Below are positions 22,025 through 33,302 of a stretch of DNA of 64,000 nucleotides, one piece after another. Below the pieces are notes generated by a model that saw nothing but the letters and a program-made list of their open reading frames with translations, ran no database searches and had not been told where the DNA came from. Within the stretch, counting starts at the first letter, position 1; the number at the start of each line of letters is the position of its first letter. This DNA comes from Rhizodiscina lignyota (lineage: Eukaryota): NCBI GenBank assembly GCA_010015805.1, contig ML978128.1, positions 124,001 through 188,000 of the forward strand, written 5' to 3'. Both the position numbers and the translations under genes were made by a program.

Positions 22025-23202
22025 ATGGCGCAAAACACAAAGGCCGCGGAGGTCTTCAACAAAATGATTCAAGAGTGTAAGATCCTGCAGAACCTTCACC
22101 CCGGCTTGAGGCCACACTGACATTGCAATTCCGTAGCTCGAGAGCGCAAGAAGAATGAAGAACGCGCCAATGCCATGTTGGGAAGCGGACGCCGCTCCAG
22201 TGCACCTGGAGTAGCAAATGTGGGCAAAGCGCGAGGAAACCTTGCTAGTCGGATGGGAGTAGCCAAGGTTAGAAGCTGTTTACAGACTCGCCCATGCGAA
22301 GTTTGACGTTACCGTTCAGAAATCTGTCTCTCCATTCGCACGACCGTCTTCGACGAAACCAGCCGACCGCTCTCCTGCCAATGGTTCTGCAGCGAGATTC
22401 AAGTCTCGGCCCTTAGCACGAACAGCGTCAGATTCACGACTGGATCGAAGGAATCGAGCCCTGGAGGACGCAGTTACGCACAATTCTTCACCAAGTGGCT
22501 TGCGTAACCAAATTGACAATCGTGACACCCAAACAAATGGCTCTGGCTTCAGCATCCGCGGTCGAGCTGCACCTGAGACAATCACCGTCGTGGCTCAGAA
22601 TCTCGCACCAGGTACAACAGCAGCAGACATGGAGGCAGTCATTCAGCCACTTGCGGGTGAGGTGCAGTGCAAAATTGTGACTGCGCGACCGACTGTCATT
22701 TGCGAGATCGTATTCCAGGATAGAGCCGCGGCAGATAAGATTGTGCAAATGTTCAACAACAAGATGGTGTGTCTCGAAATATGGACACGTGCAGAAGAAT
22801 GGCAGCTAACTGTCTCAGGCTGATGGCCGGAAGCTCTATGTCTACATCAAGGACTCAGCGAACGCTCCCTCAAATGCCCCTTCAAACGCTCCCTTGCCAA
22901 GTAGAGCGCCGCCAACTGGACCCCGAGCAGATCGCGAGCGCAATGACAGGCAGCTGGAAGATGAGATGATGGATGTTGATGATGACCGTCGCCGGTATGA
23001 TGAAGAGCGCAGGTATGACGAGGAGCGCAGGCACACTCGTCGAGCCGATCCTGAGTACCAGGATGGACGATATGGCTTTGAGGAGCCGCAGAACTACCGC
23101 GATCCGAGACCTGCTGGCCCCAGAGGTAACCAGAGGGATGGTCAGAGGCTGTACTCTGACGGCATGGTCGGAAGGCGAGGTGAAGGAAGGTACGGACGCT
23201 GA
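22025..23202 (+). CDS. RRM-domain protein with Arg/Gly/Asp-rich tail, 4 exons
   Basis: ATG 22025 (MAQNTK); FSIRG...VVAQNLAPGTTAADM...CEIVF...FNNKM|ADGRKLYVY; RG-rich C-terminus. Confidence 0.75.
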
Positions 23203-26362: not shown

Positions 26363-26844
26363 TTACAGCTTGCTGATGAAGAGTCTTGCGGCCCGTGTAC
26401 GCACCGTCTTGGGCAGGACATATTTCGAGAAAAGGTAGATGAGAGTCGGAAGGCAGATGAAGGCAACTGTAACCTCGTTCATGAAGTAGAACGGGACGAG
26501 TTGGGGCATGGCAGCCTTCAGGATGACCTGTAGTTCTCCCAATTAGCTTTCCAGCATACTCGGAGCTGGCTCCATAGGTGCACGGGAGGTCATACCGATG
26601 TATTGAGCTCGCTCTCTTGGCTCTGACCGGTGGTCTGCTGTCTTCCCTCCTTGCGGATCTGTCCGAGTTTCTGGACTTGCGCGTTGATGGATGGAGTGAA
26701 CGGGGCGACATTGCGCTTGGTGGTGAAAGTGGCAATCGCAGCCGGCCTGACAGCAGGCGAGGAGCGCACAATCGATTGTGCGAGAAGGGGCTGGCGCTGT
26801 TGCAGCGACCGAGCAAGCGGTCGGAGGAGTCGGGCGGAAGACAT
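26363..26844 (-). CDS. ATP8: Nuclear-encoded ATP synthase subunit 8 with N-terminal mitochondrial targeting extension, 2 exons, 137 aa
   Basis: Exon 1 26844-26596 (83 codons). Intron 26595-26528 (GTATGA...GCTAAT...CAG, phase 0). Exon 2 26527-26363 reads VILKAA-MPQLVPFYFMNEVTVAFICLPTLIYLFSKYVLPKTVRTRAARLFISKL*, the 48-aa fungal Atp8. Confidence 0.92.
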
Positions 26845-27220
26845 GCTGGGTGCTGTTGTGAGAGCGATTGTGTCAGCGGGGAGCTTTGCCGGTTATGCTG
26901 TGATCGTAGGAAGGAGAATACATACAGCTGGGAGCTTCACAAGCGTGTCGGAGATGGCAAACGGACCAATTGAGATGGATTCTTGTGGTGGTGAAGCTGT
27001 TCGGGCTGCAGCACTGAGGTTCTGCGGAAGTGCCAAGGCTACGCGCGCGGCTATATCCTAACCCTGTCACTATTTTTAAGCGCGACAAACACGAAATCGC
27101 GTCGAGCTCTTGTTTGCGCGCAACAGCTTCCCTTCCAGCCTGCCTTTACCACCACAACCACACACCCAAAGGCAGCGCTGGCCAACCTGAGGTTGCTGCT
27201 TGATTCCACCGCAGCCCAGC

Positions 27221-30200
27221 ATGTCGTCATTGTTCGGGAACTTGGGCGGAAACGGCCAGAAGCCGAACTTGTTTTCAGGTCTTGGGGGGCAGTCAACGTC
27301 CGGTGCAACGACGAGTGGGCAAACAGGTCCCTCTCTCTTCGGCACCTCTACTGGAGCGAGCAATGCGACAAGCTCGGGTCCGAGCACTTTCTCGGGTTTC
27401 AACACCGGTGCGACTTCTACGAGCTTTGGTCCAAGCCTCCTCCCGCCCTCTCAGCCCGCTTCCACTGGCGGAGGACTCTTTGGAGGCTTGAACACGAAGG
27501 CTACTACTTCAACTGGCGGACCGAGTCTCTTTACAACGTCTCAGCCTACGACGACTAGTGCCCCGAGTGGTGGCTTGTTCATTGGTGGCTTAGGTGGCCT
27601 GGGCACCACCACTGCTGCGACTTCATCAAGCACGCAACCCACCCAAACCGGATCGCTGCTTGGTGGATCAGTGTTTGGGGCTCCACAAAAGCCTCAACAG
27701 GGTCAGCAGCAGGGACACCCTCAGCAGTCAGGCCATTCTTCGCAGCAGCAACCATCGCAACTCGTTCAGGAGGCCATTAATGACCCAAACGCGTCCAAAC
27801 CTGTCCAGTCAGCCTACTTCGATCATTTGCTGGAGCGTGGAAAGAAGAGGAACAATGAGAAGAATGGGACATCGCAGCTCGGTGAGCTGCCAAGCCTGCA
27901 ATTGGGCCTAGGAGATATTGCCCGGAAAGTTCGTAACTTGGGGACTGGTGGGCCTTCTGCTGCGCAAGCGCGTGGCACTGGCGACACAAAAGCGTACATT
28001 ATCCTAACCTTATGCTGTGTTTGAGACGGAAGTGGGCTGACAAGATCATGTAGTCATTACCTCCTTGCTGCTTCGGGTGTCAACACGGCGACGACGTTAC
28101 GTGACCTCAACAGTTTCACGGCGCAAGCTGGTGCAAGTGTTGCCCCGGCTTCTCGTCCCGAAGCCGTGGACACCGACCTGGATAACTATGTCGCGAGCTT
28201 GAGAAATCAGTCCACCCTCGATCTGATCGCCGAAGGACTAGAGCAGTCGAAGAGGGATTTCGATGCATTCTTGGAAGAGAGCGTGCAACTTGAGTGGGAC
28301 CAGCAAAGGAGAAGAATCTACGAACATTTTGGCCTAGCTAGAAAAGACGACAATCTTGGCGGAAGTGTCGACGGCGGAGCTACCGGCGATGATCGAGGTG
28401 CGTTTGGGAGATCGTCGAGGAGAGGCCGTGGCTTGGGCAAGTCATCACTTGCTACAAGCATGGCATTGGGCGCATCTGGTATGACCCGATCAGTCATTGG
28501 TGCTCCCCAAGCAGGCAATGGACGAGCTAGCATGTTTGGCGAGTCGCCAGAGAAGACGACCCCGACTAGTACTCAGGGGGGTGTAGCAGATCGCTTCCAA
28601 AGGGATCGCCAAGAGAAATTGGCCGAGGAAGTCAAGAACCTCAATGCTGCCCGTATAAGAAAGACAACATTTCCCGTCTTGCACCGATTTGCGGAAATTG
28701 AGAAAGAGGCTGGCGTTGACAATGTACAACCACTTGTCGACTCGTACAAGGCGGTTATTGCCATCACTGGAGAGAAGTCGAACGTCGCTCGCTTATCTGA
28801 GCCTGGAGTTCTTCATGAGAGGAGCTACAGGCTGGAATATCGCGAAGAGGGCGAGCGACCCAATTCTGACGAAGCCATCCGCCTACGCAAACGCATAATC
28901 AACGGCTCTCGCACCTTCCTCGAAAACCAATTCTTGGACCAACTCACCACTCTTGTCACTAAGAACCCTCGCGAAGCCCAGCTGGGTGGTGTACCCTCTG
29001 TTGTTGACAAGATCCGTGGCTTTGTGCGCATCCTTGAAGCTCGTAAGGAACTAGGCTGCGAAGTTACGAAACTTCAGCACCTAGGCAATGACTATGTGTT
29101 CGTCATACTATACTTCCTTCTCCGCTGCGGGCTCCTCGAGGATGCGAAGAAGTACATTGAGGAGCATAGGGTCGCTTTGGGTCGCATCGACAGGAACTTC
29201 AAGTCTTTCGTTGAGTGCTATTCGAAGGATCCGGACCGTCGTTTGCCACCTGAGTTGCAGCAACGGATCACGACAGAGTATCTCAGCCAGACAAAGGTTG
29301 TTGCCGACGACAATAGAGACCCATATAGGGTCGCATGCTACAAGATTCTGGGCCGCTGCGAGCTCTCCCGCCGCTCGCTTGATAACATTGGAGGTGGTTG
29401 GGAAGACTGGCTGTGGTTGCAATTCAGTCTTGCAAGGGAGCAGCCCCGTGCAGAGGCCAGTGCTGGTGAGACGTTCGGTCTCGAGCAACTCAGAGAGGTG
29501 GTTAGAGATATTGGCACAAGACATTTCCAAGTCGGCCAGAGCAGTGATATCGGTGGCTACGGGACTTACTTCTTCCTTCAAGTCTTGGTGGGCTTATGGG
29601 AGGGTGCGGTCAATTGGCTTTATCAGCACGATCTCATTGCTGCTGTGCACTTTGCCATCTCAATGGCGTACTATGGTCTTCTGAGGATTGCAGATTTCTC
29701 GGCGCCGCAGGAGCTGTGTAAGACTTTCTTTCTATCGTGCCATATAATAATGAACTGACAGCTCTACCAGTAACATATTCGACCCGCCAACTGCCGCAAC
29801 TCCATTTTGGCCTGATGATCGGCTACTATACCGCCTCCTTCCGTACAGCACGACCCCTGCATGCAGTCGACTACCTCACTCTAATTGCTCTCAATGCCGA
29901 CTTGGAAGGTGAAGCAGGCAAGCAGCAAGCCCAGCTGTGCTACGAAGCCCTCCGCGAACTCGTCCTCGAGACGCGCGAGTTTGCCGCGCTGCTTGGCGAC
30001 GTCTCAAGTGACGGGAAACCCGTCAAGGGCGCGATTGAGACCCACAAAGAGTTGCTGAAGTTGGATGATGAAGACGAGTTCTTGAGGACGATCACGTTAT
30101 ATGCCGCCGGCATGGCGCAAGAGGCCGGCCGAGTTACGGACGCAGTGCTACTGTTCCATCTTGCGGAACAGTATGACTCTGTTATTCAAGTCTGCAACAG

Positions 30201-30927
30201 GGCATTGTCCGAATCGATTGCAATCGAGCTAGGTCAGGAGCCAATGCGTTTGGAGCCTCTGAAGCCCGCATCACAGGCCAACGCGCAGAATGGCGTCAAG
30301 CAGCAGCAAGGCACGTCTGTCTCCTTGTCGCTCACGAGTATCGAAAATCCCGAGCAATTGTCCCGAGCGATGGCAAGAATCTACAACTCCAACGCTCTGG
30401 ACCTCCAGCGTATCAAACCGCAGAACCGCGAGACGTGCGAGAAGCTGGTAGCTATTGCCGAAGCGAAACGTCACGTTGAGTCGGGCCAGTGGTCGGACGC
30501 CTTGGAGTCCATCATGAGAGTGAACCTTCTCCCCCTGACGCTCGAGCCCAACTCATTCGTCATGCTCACAACAAACTCTGGGCAATCGACCGCCCTGACC
30601 CCTGTAACTTCCCCGCCGTCGAGCAACACGCCGTCCAACCTGCCTCTCATCCGCGACCGTGCGGCTGTCATGCAGGGCCTGCCACAGCCTCTCGCGCAGA
30701 CGGTGCCGGCGCTGCTACTCATGACGCTCACGGCGTTGAGCAGGTGGCGCGCAGAGTTGCAGTCAAGCCCGTTTACTGGGGGTAATGTGACTAAGCGGAC
30801 AAACATGAAGGCGTTGGGAGACGCGGCGAGGGATCTGATGGTCTTCGCGGGCTTGGTGAGGTACAAGCTCCCCGGAAGGGTGTTTGAGAGGCTGGGCGAG
30901 GTTGTGAGTGAGGATGGTGGGATGTAG
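27221..30927 (+). CDS. NIC96: Nucleoporin Nic96/Nup93 with FG-like N-terminal extension, 3 exons
   Basis: LPSLQLGLGDI, SKRDFDAFLEE, FLLRCG, DPYRVACYKILGRC, EDWLWLQ, LRELVLETREFAALLGD; introns near 27994-28053 and 29718-29770. Confidence 0.92.
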
Positions 30928-31596
30928 GAACTGCTAATGGCGTTTGATATTGTCGCGAGGAGCACTTTGCAAAACAGTGGAGCAAAAAAGTTGTGTTTTG
31001 GCAATAGATGGTCTCTGCGTGTAGCTTGAATGAGACGGGCAAAATACCAATAACAGGCTCGTTCAAGAACTTTCTCAGATTGTTTCTCCTAAAGAGTTGT
31101 CATGCATCTAAGCCAGCCATACTCTCGAAACAGAATTATGTCTGTCGCCATCAGCGCTCGTCATGAGAGCAGCCTTTAAACCTTTTCGTCAATCCAGTGA
31201 CGCAGTACGTTCTATAAGAGAGTAAATGGTGAACCTTCGCAGGCACGAAGCTGACTTCCTTCGCGATTAGAACTAGCCCATGCAGGGATTTCCCCATGGT
31301 GTCTCTGCTAGAAAGTTTTCTAAACCTAAAGAAAACCAGTCTTCTACGTTGCTTCTGAGTGTGTAAACTAAGGGACTGGTCGTTGTAATTTTGGGAAGAG
31401 GGGGCATGCACCAACTTCGTTTATGGTATATACATTCGTACCGTTACACGTGGCAACTCAGCCTTATGGATGCAGCCCAGCTTTCACGCAACTACGACCC
31501 CACCTCAAGTTTAACCTCGTGGCCGCCTAAGCCTGATTTCTCTGAATCAACAATAATCCTCAGATACTAATTTCTTTGGGTTCGGGACTTGGCTAC

Positions 31597-33302
31597 ATGG
31601 AGGACTTTGTGTACGAGCAGATTGACCTCAACACTCTTGGATTCCGACTCCTGCGCCTTCTCAAAGGTAACGGGTACGACGACCCTATCCAATGTGAGCT
31701 CCTCGCTGCCTTCCTAGACGAGGAGTATGTCCCCGATTATGAGGCGCTGTCATATACTTGGGGAGGAGAGGGGAAGCCATGCCATGTAGAAGTGGATGGA
31801 AAGACGATGGCGGTCACAGAGAATCTGGAGCTGGCCTTGCGACACTTGCGGTTGGAAACTCGAGATCGACTGCTGCGGGCCGATGCGATACGTATCAACC
31901 AGCGCGACAACAAAGAAAAAGGGCATCAAGTTGGCAATATGCAGCACATCTACAAAGCTGCGGTTAGAGTGATCGTTTGGTTAGGTCCTGCGACTTCTGA
32001 GACGGATTTCATTATGGATCAATTAAGGCAGCTCGGGATTGAAAGCAGAAACCAGCCGCGTATGATGTTGGACTTTGCGAAGGAACGAATACAAAAGCTC
32101 TGGCTCAGGGCGCAGCCAGCCACTCGTAGTGTTGGAGTCGTATCTGAACAGCGAAAGGGACTGGAGTTGCTTCTAGCGCGGCCTTGGTTTAGAAGAGTCT
32201 GGATTCTTCAAGAAGTCGCCAACTCCAGGTCTACCGAAGTCGTTTGCGGCAACATGACAGTCTCCGGGGAGATATTTGCGTTCGCTCCCTCTCTGGTTGG
32301 TGTCGACACCAGCATAAACTGCCAGGCCGTGCTGGATATCATGTCCCCAGCTTCACGCATCTGCTCTTGGTGGGCCCAAAAACGCATCTCCTCACTCTTC
32401 TGCAGAAGTTCGGCCAGAGCGAAGCGACTGACGAACGGGATCACATCTTTGCCTTGCTTAGTTTGTCAACGGACAGAAATATCTCGGAACACATAATAGC
32501 AGACTATGAGAGGTCTGTGGATGATGTTATCCACGACACAACCGTCTTTTTACTGGGAGTGGCCAAGAGTGTCCCCAGGCAGAGTCTGCCACGATGGGAC
32601 ATGTCATCTCTCTTAAACTTCCAAGGAGATCTTACAGTAGCCGGGTTTCGGCATAGGGCATTTTGGCGGGCAATATCTGACAACCGCGACGTCCCTGTGA
32701 AGGTGCTCATCGAGTCCATCAATATGGATTTTAATGAGAAAAACAACGAGGGCGAGACAGTACTACTATCGGCAGTAACTAGAGGCCACAAATCGGTTGT
32801 CGAGGCCCTCCTTGCGTTGCCCAAGGTCGAGATTCATTCACAAGACAATCAAGGTAGTTCACCACTGATGATTGCGATGCATAGTCGGGACACAGGGATT
32901 GTGAACCTTCTTCTCGAGCAAGACGACATAGACGTCAACTCGAGGGACGATGATGGCCGAACACCATTACACTTAGCGATAGTTATGTATCGTCATAAGG
33001 GAGCTATCAAGCTTCTTCTCGAACGAGACGACATAGACGTCAACTCGAGGGACAATGATGGCCAAACACCATTACACTTAGCGATACGTACACATTATGA
33101 TGATGAAGACGTTGTCAAGCTTCTTCTTGAACGAGACGGTATAGACGTCAACTCGAGGGACAATGACGGCCGAACACCATTGGAGTTGGCTGCATACGAG
33201 CACAAGGTGTGGATAGAGAACCTGCTGCGCAGCCGGATGAGAATTCCTACATCAGTTCCACATTGGCTTGTAGGATTTAAGGGATGGGGAATAGGATCGT
33301 GA
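31597..33302 (+). pseudogene. HET-domain (heterokaryon incompatibility) plus ankyrin-repeat gene with a frameshift
   Basis: YEALSYTWG, NLELALRHLR, HQVGNMQHIY, PWFRRVWILQEV in frame 1. ATDERDHIFALL and ankyrin repeats are in another frame; the shift is near 32383 with no intron signals. Confidence 0.75.
32907..33181 (+). repeat. Three near-identical ankyrin-coding DNA repeats (spacing 105 and 108 nt)
   Basis: GACGTCAACTCGAGGGAC(G/A)ATGA(T/C)GGCC(G/A)AACACCATT begins at 32931, 33036 and 33144. Confidence 0.9.

Follow-up and report, generated by a model that had tools for sequence, protein, structure and literature searches.

A putative nuclear gene for mitochondrial ATP synthase subunit 8 in the Dothideomycete Rhizodiscina lignyota

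Subunit 8 of the mitochondrial F1Fo ATP synthase is among the few proteins that nearly all fungi and animals still encode in mitochondrial DNA (mtDNA). What, then, is a subunit 8 sequence that stands in GC-rich DNA, joined through an intron to a long N-terminal extension? Is it a working gene, a gene caught midway in its move from one genome to the other, a protein with a new role, or a relic? The question is raised by a 64,000-nucleotide stretch of Rhizodiscina lignyota (GenBank assembly GCA_010015805.1, contig ML978128.1, positions 124,001 to 188,000 of the forward strand). This whole stretch is called the window here, and the atp8 locus occupies its positions 26363 to 26844. A taxonomy look-up places the species in the order Aulographales (Pleosporomycetidae, Dothideomycetes). 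Judged from sequence comparison, the locus is very likely a functional nuclear gene for F1Fo ATP synthase subunit 8 (A6L) of this Dothideomycete. The evidence is a full-length family match, nuclear codon usage, orthologues with an alignable leader, a shared intron position and a codon pattern of purifying selection.

Gene structure and identity

The gene has two exons on the minus strand, separated by a short intron. Its parts are as follows.

26844-26596, minus strand: exon 1, 83 codons with the ATG at 26844; encodes most of the predicted N-terminal mitochondrial presequence.
26595-26528, minus strand: spliceosomal intron, 68 nt, phase 0, GT-AG, with donor GTATGA and acceptor CAG.
26546-26542, minus strand: CTAAT branch-point word within the intron, read from the sequence.
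26527-26363, minus strand: exon 2, 54 codons plus TAA.
26510-26527, minus strand: leader/ATP8 junction, the first six codons of exon 2 (VILKAA), conserved in relatives; probable processing region.
26366-26509, minus strand: mature ATP synthase F0 subunit 8 (A6L) domain, 48 codons with an MPQL start, matched by PF05933.
26363-26365, minus strand: stop codon TAA, read from the sequence.

The domain at the end of exon 2 identifies the product. Residues 7-54 of this exon (protein residues 90-137) match the Pfam family PF05933 (Fun_ATP-synt_8) over profile positions 1-48 of 48, with a score of 77.7 bits (cutoff 26.1, E 7.5e-22). When the fungal ATP8 profile was run on the whole spliced protein of 137 amino acids (aa), it scored 74.4 bits on residues 90-137. 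These matches are far beyond chance. The best match among solved structures is yeast 'ATP synthase protein 8' (6b2z_A, E 1e-12), with residues 1-48 all aligned. The yeast Atp8 sequence matched in this way recurs in 38 structure entries (6b2z_A and 37 more). The initial annotation had named the 48-aa MPQL stretch as F0 subunit 8, a reading that the profile and the structure match both bear out. The domain has a hydrophobic centre, with 1.77 on the Kyte-Doolittle scale for its top 17-residue span, and a basic end (five K/R and no D/E in the last 15 residues). When 16 named nuclear orthologues are aligned, 26 of the 48 positions of the domain do not vary, and the MPQL start is kept in 16 of 16.

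Splicing is needed to read the two exons as one protein. Removal of the intron gives the 137-aa product, and the unspliced frame stops after 84 aa (scripted translation). Over the range scanned, the frame is kept by four GT..AG pairings. Of these, only the 68-nt intron has a consensus donor and a branch word, lies where the introns of relatives lie, and agrees with the public gene model. That public protein (P0003) came from a search of a 5.8-billion-cluster protein collection and is 100% identical; a script comparison found the spliced translation equal to it letter for letter. It is the NCBI entry 'hypothetical protein NA57DRAFT_77275 [Rhizodiscina lignyota]', is named 'ATP synthase protein 8' in UniRef and lies on a 1.87-Mb contig. 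The public annotation thus already uses the same splice. The two-exon structure, its coordinates, the phase-0 68-nt intron and both exon translations are also exactly as the initial annotation gave them.

Several other public or metagenomic models of nuclear atp8 look mis-modelled. These are P0008, P0011, P0018, P0019, P0027 and P0036, and also P0009, P0020 and P0035. Some keep the intron as coding, P0009 overruns the stop, and P0020 and P0035 begin far upstream. The nuclear gene is evidently hard for automatic annotation.

The DNA around the gene is of nuclear type. GC content over 24-30 kb of the window is 0.42-0.61, with no AT-rich flank. For comparison, a single metagenome scan yielded 80 atp8 loci: seven nuclear-type (GC 0.46-0.62) and 73 mitochondrial-type (GC 0.23-0.31). 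GC content at third codon positions (GC3) is 0.73 in the ATP8 domain, 0.67 in exon 1 and 0.60 in an exon of the neighbouring NIC96, against a mean of 0.13 in the mitochondrial loci (n=73), a set that was assigned by its GC of 0.23-0.31 and includes no named Dothideomycete mitochondrial ATP8. The GC-rich, nuclear-style codons described initially are thus found in both exons. So is the head-to-head arrangement with NIC96: the Nic96 matches lie on the plus strand, downstream of the open reading frame (ORF) that starts at 27221, and the gap to the atp8 start is 376 bp. Pfam Nic96 (PF04097) matches at 28025-29755 (E 1e-91) and 29722-30924 (E 1.3e-86), both on the plus strand. The two features on this side are as follows.

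26845-27220: divergent intergenic region of 376 bp from the atp8 ATG to the NIC96-gene ATG; presumed shared promoter and 5' untranslated region, from its position.
27221-30927, plus strand: NIC96/Nup93 neighbour gene, with Pfam PF04097 on two exon blocks.

With NIC96/Nup93 as its neighbour, the locus is chromosomal. Regional GC, GC3, the intron, NIC96 and the 1.87-Mb public contig together place atp8 in chromosomal, nuclear-type DNA read with the standard code.

Leader and intron in relatives

Ahead of the domain lies a long leader. The ATP8 methionine is preceded by 89 residues, with 13 K/R against 3 D/E. The first acidic residue stands at position 66, in keeping with the acid-free N-terminus noted initially. 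The leaders of the 16 nuclear orthologues can be aligned, with M1, R5, P9 and R33 invariant, and the first 30 residues are acid-free in 15 of the 16. Leader length ranges from 52 to 89 residues, that of the window being the longest. Directly before the ATP8 methionine, relatives show the junction pattern [TVI][IVP][LV][KQ][AS][AG]. An inner leader module is common to the window, Venturia, Trichodelitschia, Botryosphaeriales, Extremaceae and the metagenome loci L018 and L022, and is missing from Pleosporales.

No Pfam family matched exon 1 at E<=1. A weak match of the leader to DUF4512 (17.7 bits, cutoff 27) was taken as chance. A phmmer search with the 137-aa query against 1.84 billion representatives gave 128 matches at E<=1e-3. 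No unrelated protein with the same leader was found among the first 32 of these 128, all of which are ATP8 relatives or exon-1 read-throughs (P0030, P0034, P0057). For the remaining 96, the matched stretches all lie inside query residues 73-137. The donor of the presequence, if there was one, would not be identifiable from such leader matches.

Many of the search results are proteins in which an N-terminal extension precedes an ATP8 domain (26 of 31 candidates in one protein search, 19 of 48 in another, and further ones among the 128 phmmer matches). Eight orders of Dothideomycetes contain named nuclear orthologues whose leader can be aligned: Aulographales, Pleosporales, Venturiales, Mytilinidiales, Phaeotrichales, Eremomycetales, Botryosphaeriales and Mycosphaerellales. 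The last is represented by Extremaceae, of the subclass Dothideomycetidae. Several of the genera counted under Pleosporales we take to belong to that order.

The intron is shared as well. In the window and in six of the seven nuclear-type metagenome loci (seven of eight in total), six codons separate the acceptor of a phase-0 intron from the ATP8 methionine. In the remaining locus, L005, it lies seven codons before the methionine, with a one-codon insertion there. Intron sizes in the nuclear-type loci are 51-68 nt by script output. For L018 and L022 the script chose an upstream donor; read by eye, the donor is GTTCGT, directly after an ATG codon. We infer that Extremaceae share the intron position, the basis being only a retained-intron protein model (P0027 compared with P0028).

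How many times did this gene arise? In a tree of the 48-residue domain (72 rows), 21 of the 22 nuclear rows lie together on the same side of a branch whose SH-aLRT is 86, below the mark of 95. Forty-eight columns are too few to decide between one origin and several, and the case for a single one is therefore built on the leader and on where the intron sits. By these two features the window gene appears orthologous to the nuclear atp8 of Pleosporales. The gene probably goes back to one old transfer, with a fragment of mtDNA that either came to lie downstream of a presequence exon or acquired one. We lean somewhat toward the view that the chimera of presequence exon and phase-0 intron arose a single time, before Pleosporomycetidae and Dothideomycetidae split.

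The mitogenome literature implies a later date. Passages of PMC5626475 describe Stemphylium and other Pleosporales mitogenomes without atp8 and atp9, with nuclear homologues that have longer N-termini and TargetP-predicted presequences (for example Stemphylium lycopersici TW65_04673), and suggest that the loss followed the Dothideomycetidae/Pleosporomycetidae split. Loss of atp8 from mtDNA has been reported also for Phaeosphaeria nodorum, Didymella, Shiraia, Bipolaris and Exserohilum, and transfer is stated for Shiraia-like fungi (PMC11881002). The gene is missing from 9 of 20 Dothideomycete mitogenomes (PMC7225605). Its loss is general in Pleosporales, and other orders, Mycosphaerellales among them, commonly have it in mtDNA (PMC8956966). 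The Macrophomina mitogenome is listed with atp6 and atp9 and not atp8 (PMC8451660), which fits the nuclear Macrophomina copy found here (P0152). In Pseudocercospora, mitochondrial atp8 and atp6 are co-transcribed, and Mycosphaerellaceae keep the mitochondrial gene, according to passages of 10.1101/694562. No paper naming both Rhizodiscina and atp8 was found in a literature search, nor, in a search that covered journals outside subscription, a published statement that nuclear atp8 is common to several orders with one intron position.

A single early origin would contrast with the origin within or near Pleosporales that the mitogenome literature implies. If it is true, subunit 8 was encoded in both compartments for a long period. 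The lineages would then have resolved this state in opposite ways, with several independent losses from mtDNA.

Two proteins assigned to fungi outside the class were seen. P0033, from a bin labelled Pyrenula ochraceoflavens (Eurotiomycetes), is a 131-aa ATP8 on a 334-kb contig, and its leader starts nearly as in the window. It could reflect Dothideomycete contamination of the bin, a gene that arose earlier, or its transfer from one fungus to another. Were the bin free of contamination, the origin would move still further back, or the gene would have passed from nucleus to nucleus. P0154, from Ascodesmis nigricans (Pezizomycetes), is a 105-aa ATP8 on a 2.97-Mb contig. Its basic leader is different, the four junction residues that directly precede MPQL are similar, and in the domain tree it forms a long branch among the mitochondrial rows. 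It may represent a separate mitochondrion-to-nucleus transfer of atp8 in Pezizales.

Function of the nuclear copy and rival readings

Is the nuclear copy a working gene? Codon comparison, hydrophobicity and leader composition all bear on this, and each carries a caveat. The ratio of nonsynonymous to synonymous substitution rates (dN/dS) between the window and L001-L005 is 0.16-0.23 (Nei-Gojobori, 48 domain codons), values that are rough because dS of 0.9-1.4 is near saturation (4 of 28 pairs saturated). Against L018 and L022 the synonymous sites are saturated. Across all 28 pairs, 24 gave a dN/dS, ranging from 0.03 to 0.54, the two highest coming from near-identical pairs with very few changes. 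Rough as they are, these values exclude neutral drift and, as a reading of aligned codons, indicate that the ATP8 domain is under purifying selection.

The second point concerns the membrane segment. Mean Kyte-Doolittle hydrophobicity is 0.88 for nuclear ATP8 domains (n=8) and 1.21 for mitochondrial ones (n=51 unique; Mann-Whitney p 1e-5), and the most hydrophobic 17-residue span averages 1.80 against 2.21, a contrast that sets one nuclear clade against metagenome mitochondrial contigs and is not phylogenetically independent. The window's own domain has a mean of 0.76, with the top span given above. The direction is that of Atp9, for which reduced hydrophobicity is needed in the nuclear form, as described in passages of PMC3420929; for allotopic Atp8 in yeast the same passages give an added targeting sequence and recoding as enough. 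The third point concerns the leader. Its maximum hydrophobic moment, 0.53, is not above composition-matched shuffles, of which 352 of 2000 reach 0.53, and the case for targeting is therefore one of composition and conservation only.

Could the transfer still be in progress? A functional nuclear gene would then coexist in Rhizodiscina lignyota with an intact mitochondrial atp8. The mixed state of Mycosphaerellales lends this some weight: Mycosphaerellaceae keep and transcribe the mitochondrial gene (10.1101/694562, in the passages noted above), and Extremaceae, of the same order, carry the nuclear one. A period of coexistence must therefore have occurred somewhere in the class. Against it, carriers for which both genomes are documented are without the mitochondrial copy, both in Pleosporales (PMC8956966 and passages of PMC5626475) and in Macrophomina (PMC8451660, with nuclear P0152). 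Strong purifying selection on the nuclear copy also fits the status of a sole copy. We regard persistence of a mitochondrial gene in this species as improbable. By analogy with Pleosporales and Macrophomina, we infer that atp8 would have been lost from Rhizodiscina lignyota mtDNA and the transfer completed.

A further reading is that the protein is ATP8-like and neofunctionalised, its leader not fully removed and serving as an N-terminal tail or in another role. The 89-residue leader is the longest of the 16, and its inner part is conserved in the close relatives P0030, P0034 and P0057 and in L018 and L022, beyond what targeting needs. Long or duplicated presequences, however, aid import of hydrophobic proteins, as with Neurospora Atp9 and yeast allotopic Atp8, which counts against a new role. 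The conserved junction before MPQL, and MPQL itself, invariant in 16 orthologues, suggest that the canonical N-terminus matters. We consider this reading very unlikely.

The reading of the locus as a nuclear mitochondrial DNA segment (NUMT) or decaying pseudogene, a recent non-functional insertion whose short 48-codon ORF could stay open by chance for some time, is hardly credible and was rejected, contradicted as it is by GC3 (0.73 against 0.13) without an AT-rich flank, by the in-frame joining of the domain to a presequence exon through a canonical intron, by alignable-leader orthologues in eight orders, by the intron position in seven other nuclear-type loci with all frames open, and by dN/dS of 0.16-0.23. 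The initial annotation had proposed a functional mitochondrion-to-nucleus transfer in place of a NUMT. Family match, nuclear codons, shared intron position, dN/dS, the eight orders and the identical public model all support that proposal.

For a functional transferred gene, the following pathway is proposed. Transcription would start in the region that the gene has in common with NIC96, and the spliced mRNA would be read in the cytosol to give a 137-aa precursor. Guided by its presequence, the precursor would pass through TOM and TIM23 to reach the matrix; its one membrane segment, being less hydrophobic, would permit passage, rather than arrest in the inner membrane. The matrix processing peptidase would then remove the leader, in one step or perhaps several, with a cut close to or at the conserved junction before MPQL. 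In yeast, subunit 8 lies with its N-terminus toward the intermembrane space, and the product of about 48-54 residues would be inserted into the inner membrane in this orientation. It would take its place next to subunit a, where the peripheral stalk has its base, and stand in for the protein formerly made from the lost mitochondrial gene.

The novelty of the locus itself is low: relocation is published for Pleosporales, and the exact protein is already in NCBI and UniRef, automatically named. Two modest additions are made here. One is that leaders which can be aligned are found in eight orders, spanning the deepest split between subclasses of Dothideomycetes. The other is that each of the eight nuclear-type loci examined at DNA level shows the intron position again. 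Leader distribution and intron recurrence point to a single old transfer, as far as such comparisons go. Genomes already at hand can thereby be used to test directly when the gene moved and how often it was lost from mtDNA. A natural relocation of this kind would also show what a hydrophobic organelle protein needs once it is made in the cytosol, namely a leader that is long and basic, a conserved processing junction, and a membrane segment of lower hydrophobicity. This bears on why mitochondria keep genomes and on allotopic ATP8 expression as a therapy concept.

Some further observations were made on atp8 elsewhere and on the rest of the window. P0029 (178 aa) contains three identical mitochondrial-type ATP8 units with an identical 17-residue spacer between them, and is probably an artefact of tandem or circular assembly. 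P0048 (201 aa) carries an ATP8 domain fused in frame. The five residues before its MPQL resemble the nuclear-copy junction, and its N-terminal 120 residues look, by eye, like a LAGLIDADG homing endonuclease. In the mitochondrial-type loci L048 and L058 the atp8 frame meets no stop where the protein usually ends and continues, one of them reading 371 residues; these may be fused ORFs or reflect a different stop context. Within the window, the NIC96/Nup93 gene is split over at least three frame blocks (27221-28024, 28025-29758 and 29722-30927). The first is rich in Gly, Ser, Thr and Phe and has no Pfam match, and the Nic96 domain falls in the next two. An ORF at 31546-32496 on the plus strand has a HET (heterokaryon incompatibility) domain (PF06985, E 9.2e-31). 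Another, at 22263-22823 on the plus strand, passes the RRM_1 cutoff of 20.7 bits only narrowly, at 21.1 (E 2.9e-4).

Comparison with known systems

One close system is mitochondrially encoded fungal Atp8, for example that of Saccharomyces cerevisiae (6b2z, 6cp6 and others). The two are alike in their 48 residues, their MPQL start and their ISKL end. A hand count from the alignment gives 28 of 48 residues identical to the yeast chain, and the profile match is full length. Unlike mitochondrially encoded Atp8, the window copy is nuclear, uses the standard code and GC-rich codons, and has a leader and an intron upstream. Its domain is also less hydrophobic than the 51 unique mitochondrial copies (mean 0.76 against 1.21).

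The nuclear atp8 of Pleosporales is another. It is of the same family and has an N-terminal extension, a putative presequence, that aligns with the window leader (M1, R5, P9, R33). Metagenome loci of Pleosporales-like type have a phase-0 intron, six codons before the ATP8 methionine (seven in L005). The window domain is 69-75% identical to named Pleosporales proteins. The genes differ in the leader, which is 89 residues long in this member of Aulographales and about 52 in Pleosporales; the window leader has the inner module absent from Pleosporales, plus about 25 further residues. The basic stretch at the C-terminus also differs, reading PKTVRTR in the window and PQRVRLF in Pleosporales.

Nuclear ATP9 offers a parallel in another F0 membrane subunit. 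In passages of PMC3420929 on Podospora PaAtp9-5 and PaAtp9-7, on Neurospora and on experimental relocation, it too is nuclear; its presequence is long and its membrane segment has reduced hydrophobicity. Unlike ATP9, subunit 8 has one membrane helix, not two, and belongs to the stalk base, not to the c-ring.

Engineered allotopic ATP8 has reportedly been made in human cells too. The yeast work, as given in passages of PMC3420929, follows the same principle as the window gene, a presequence ahead of a recoded nuclear ATP8. The difference lies in where the presequence comes from: engineered constructs borrow that of another protein, whereas the window gene would be a natural and ancient case with a presequence exon of its own.

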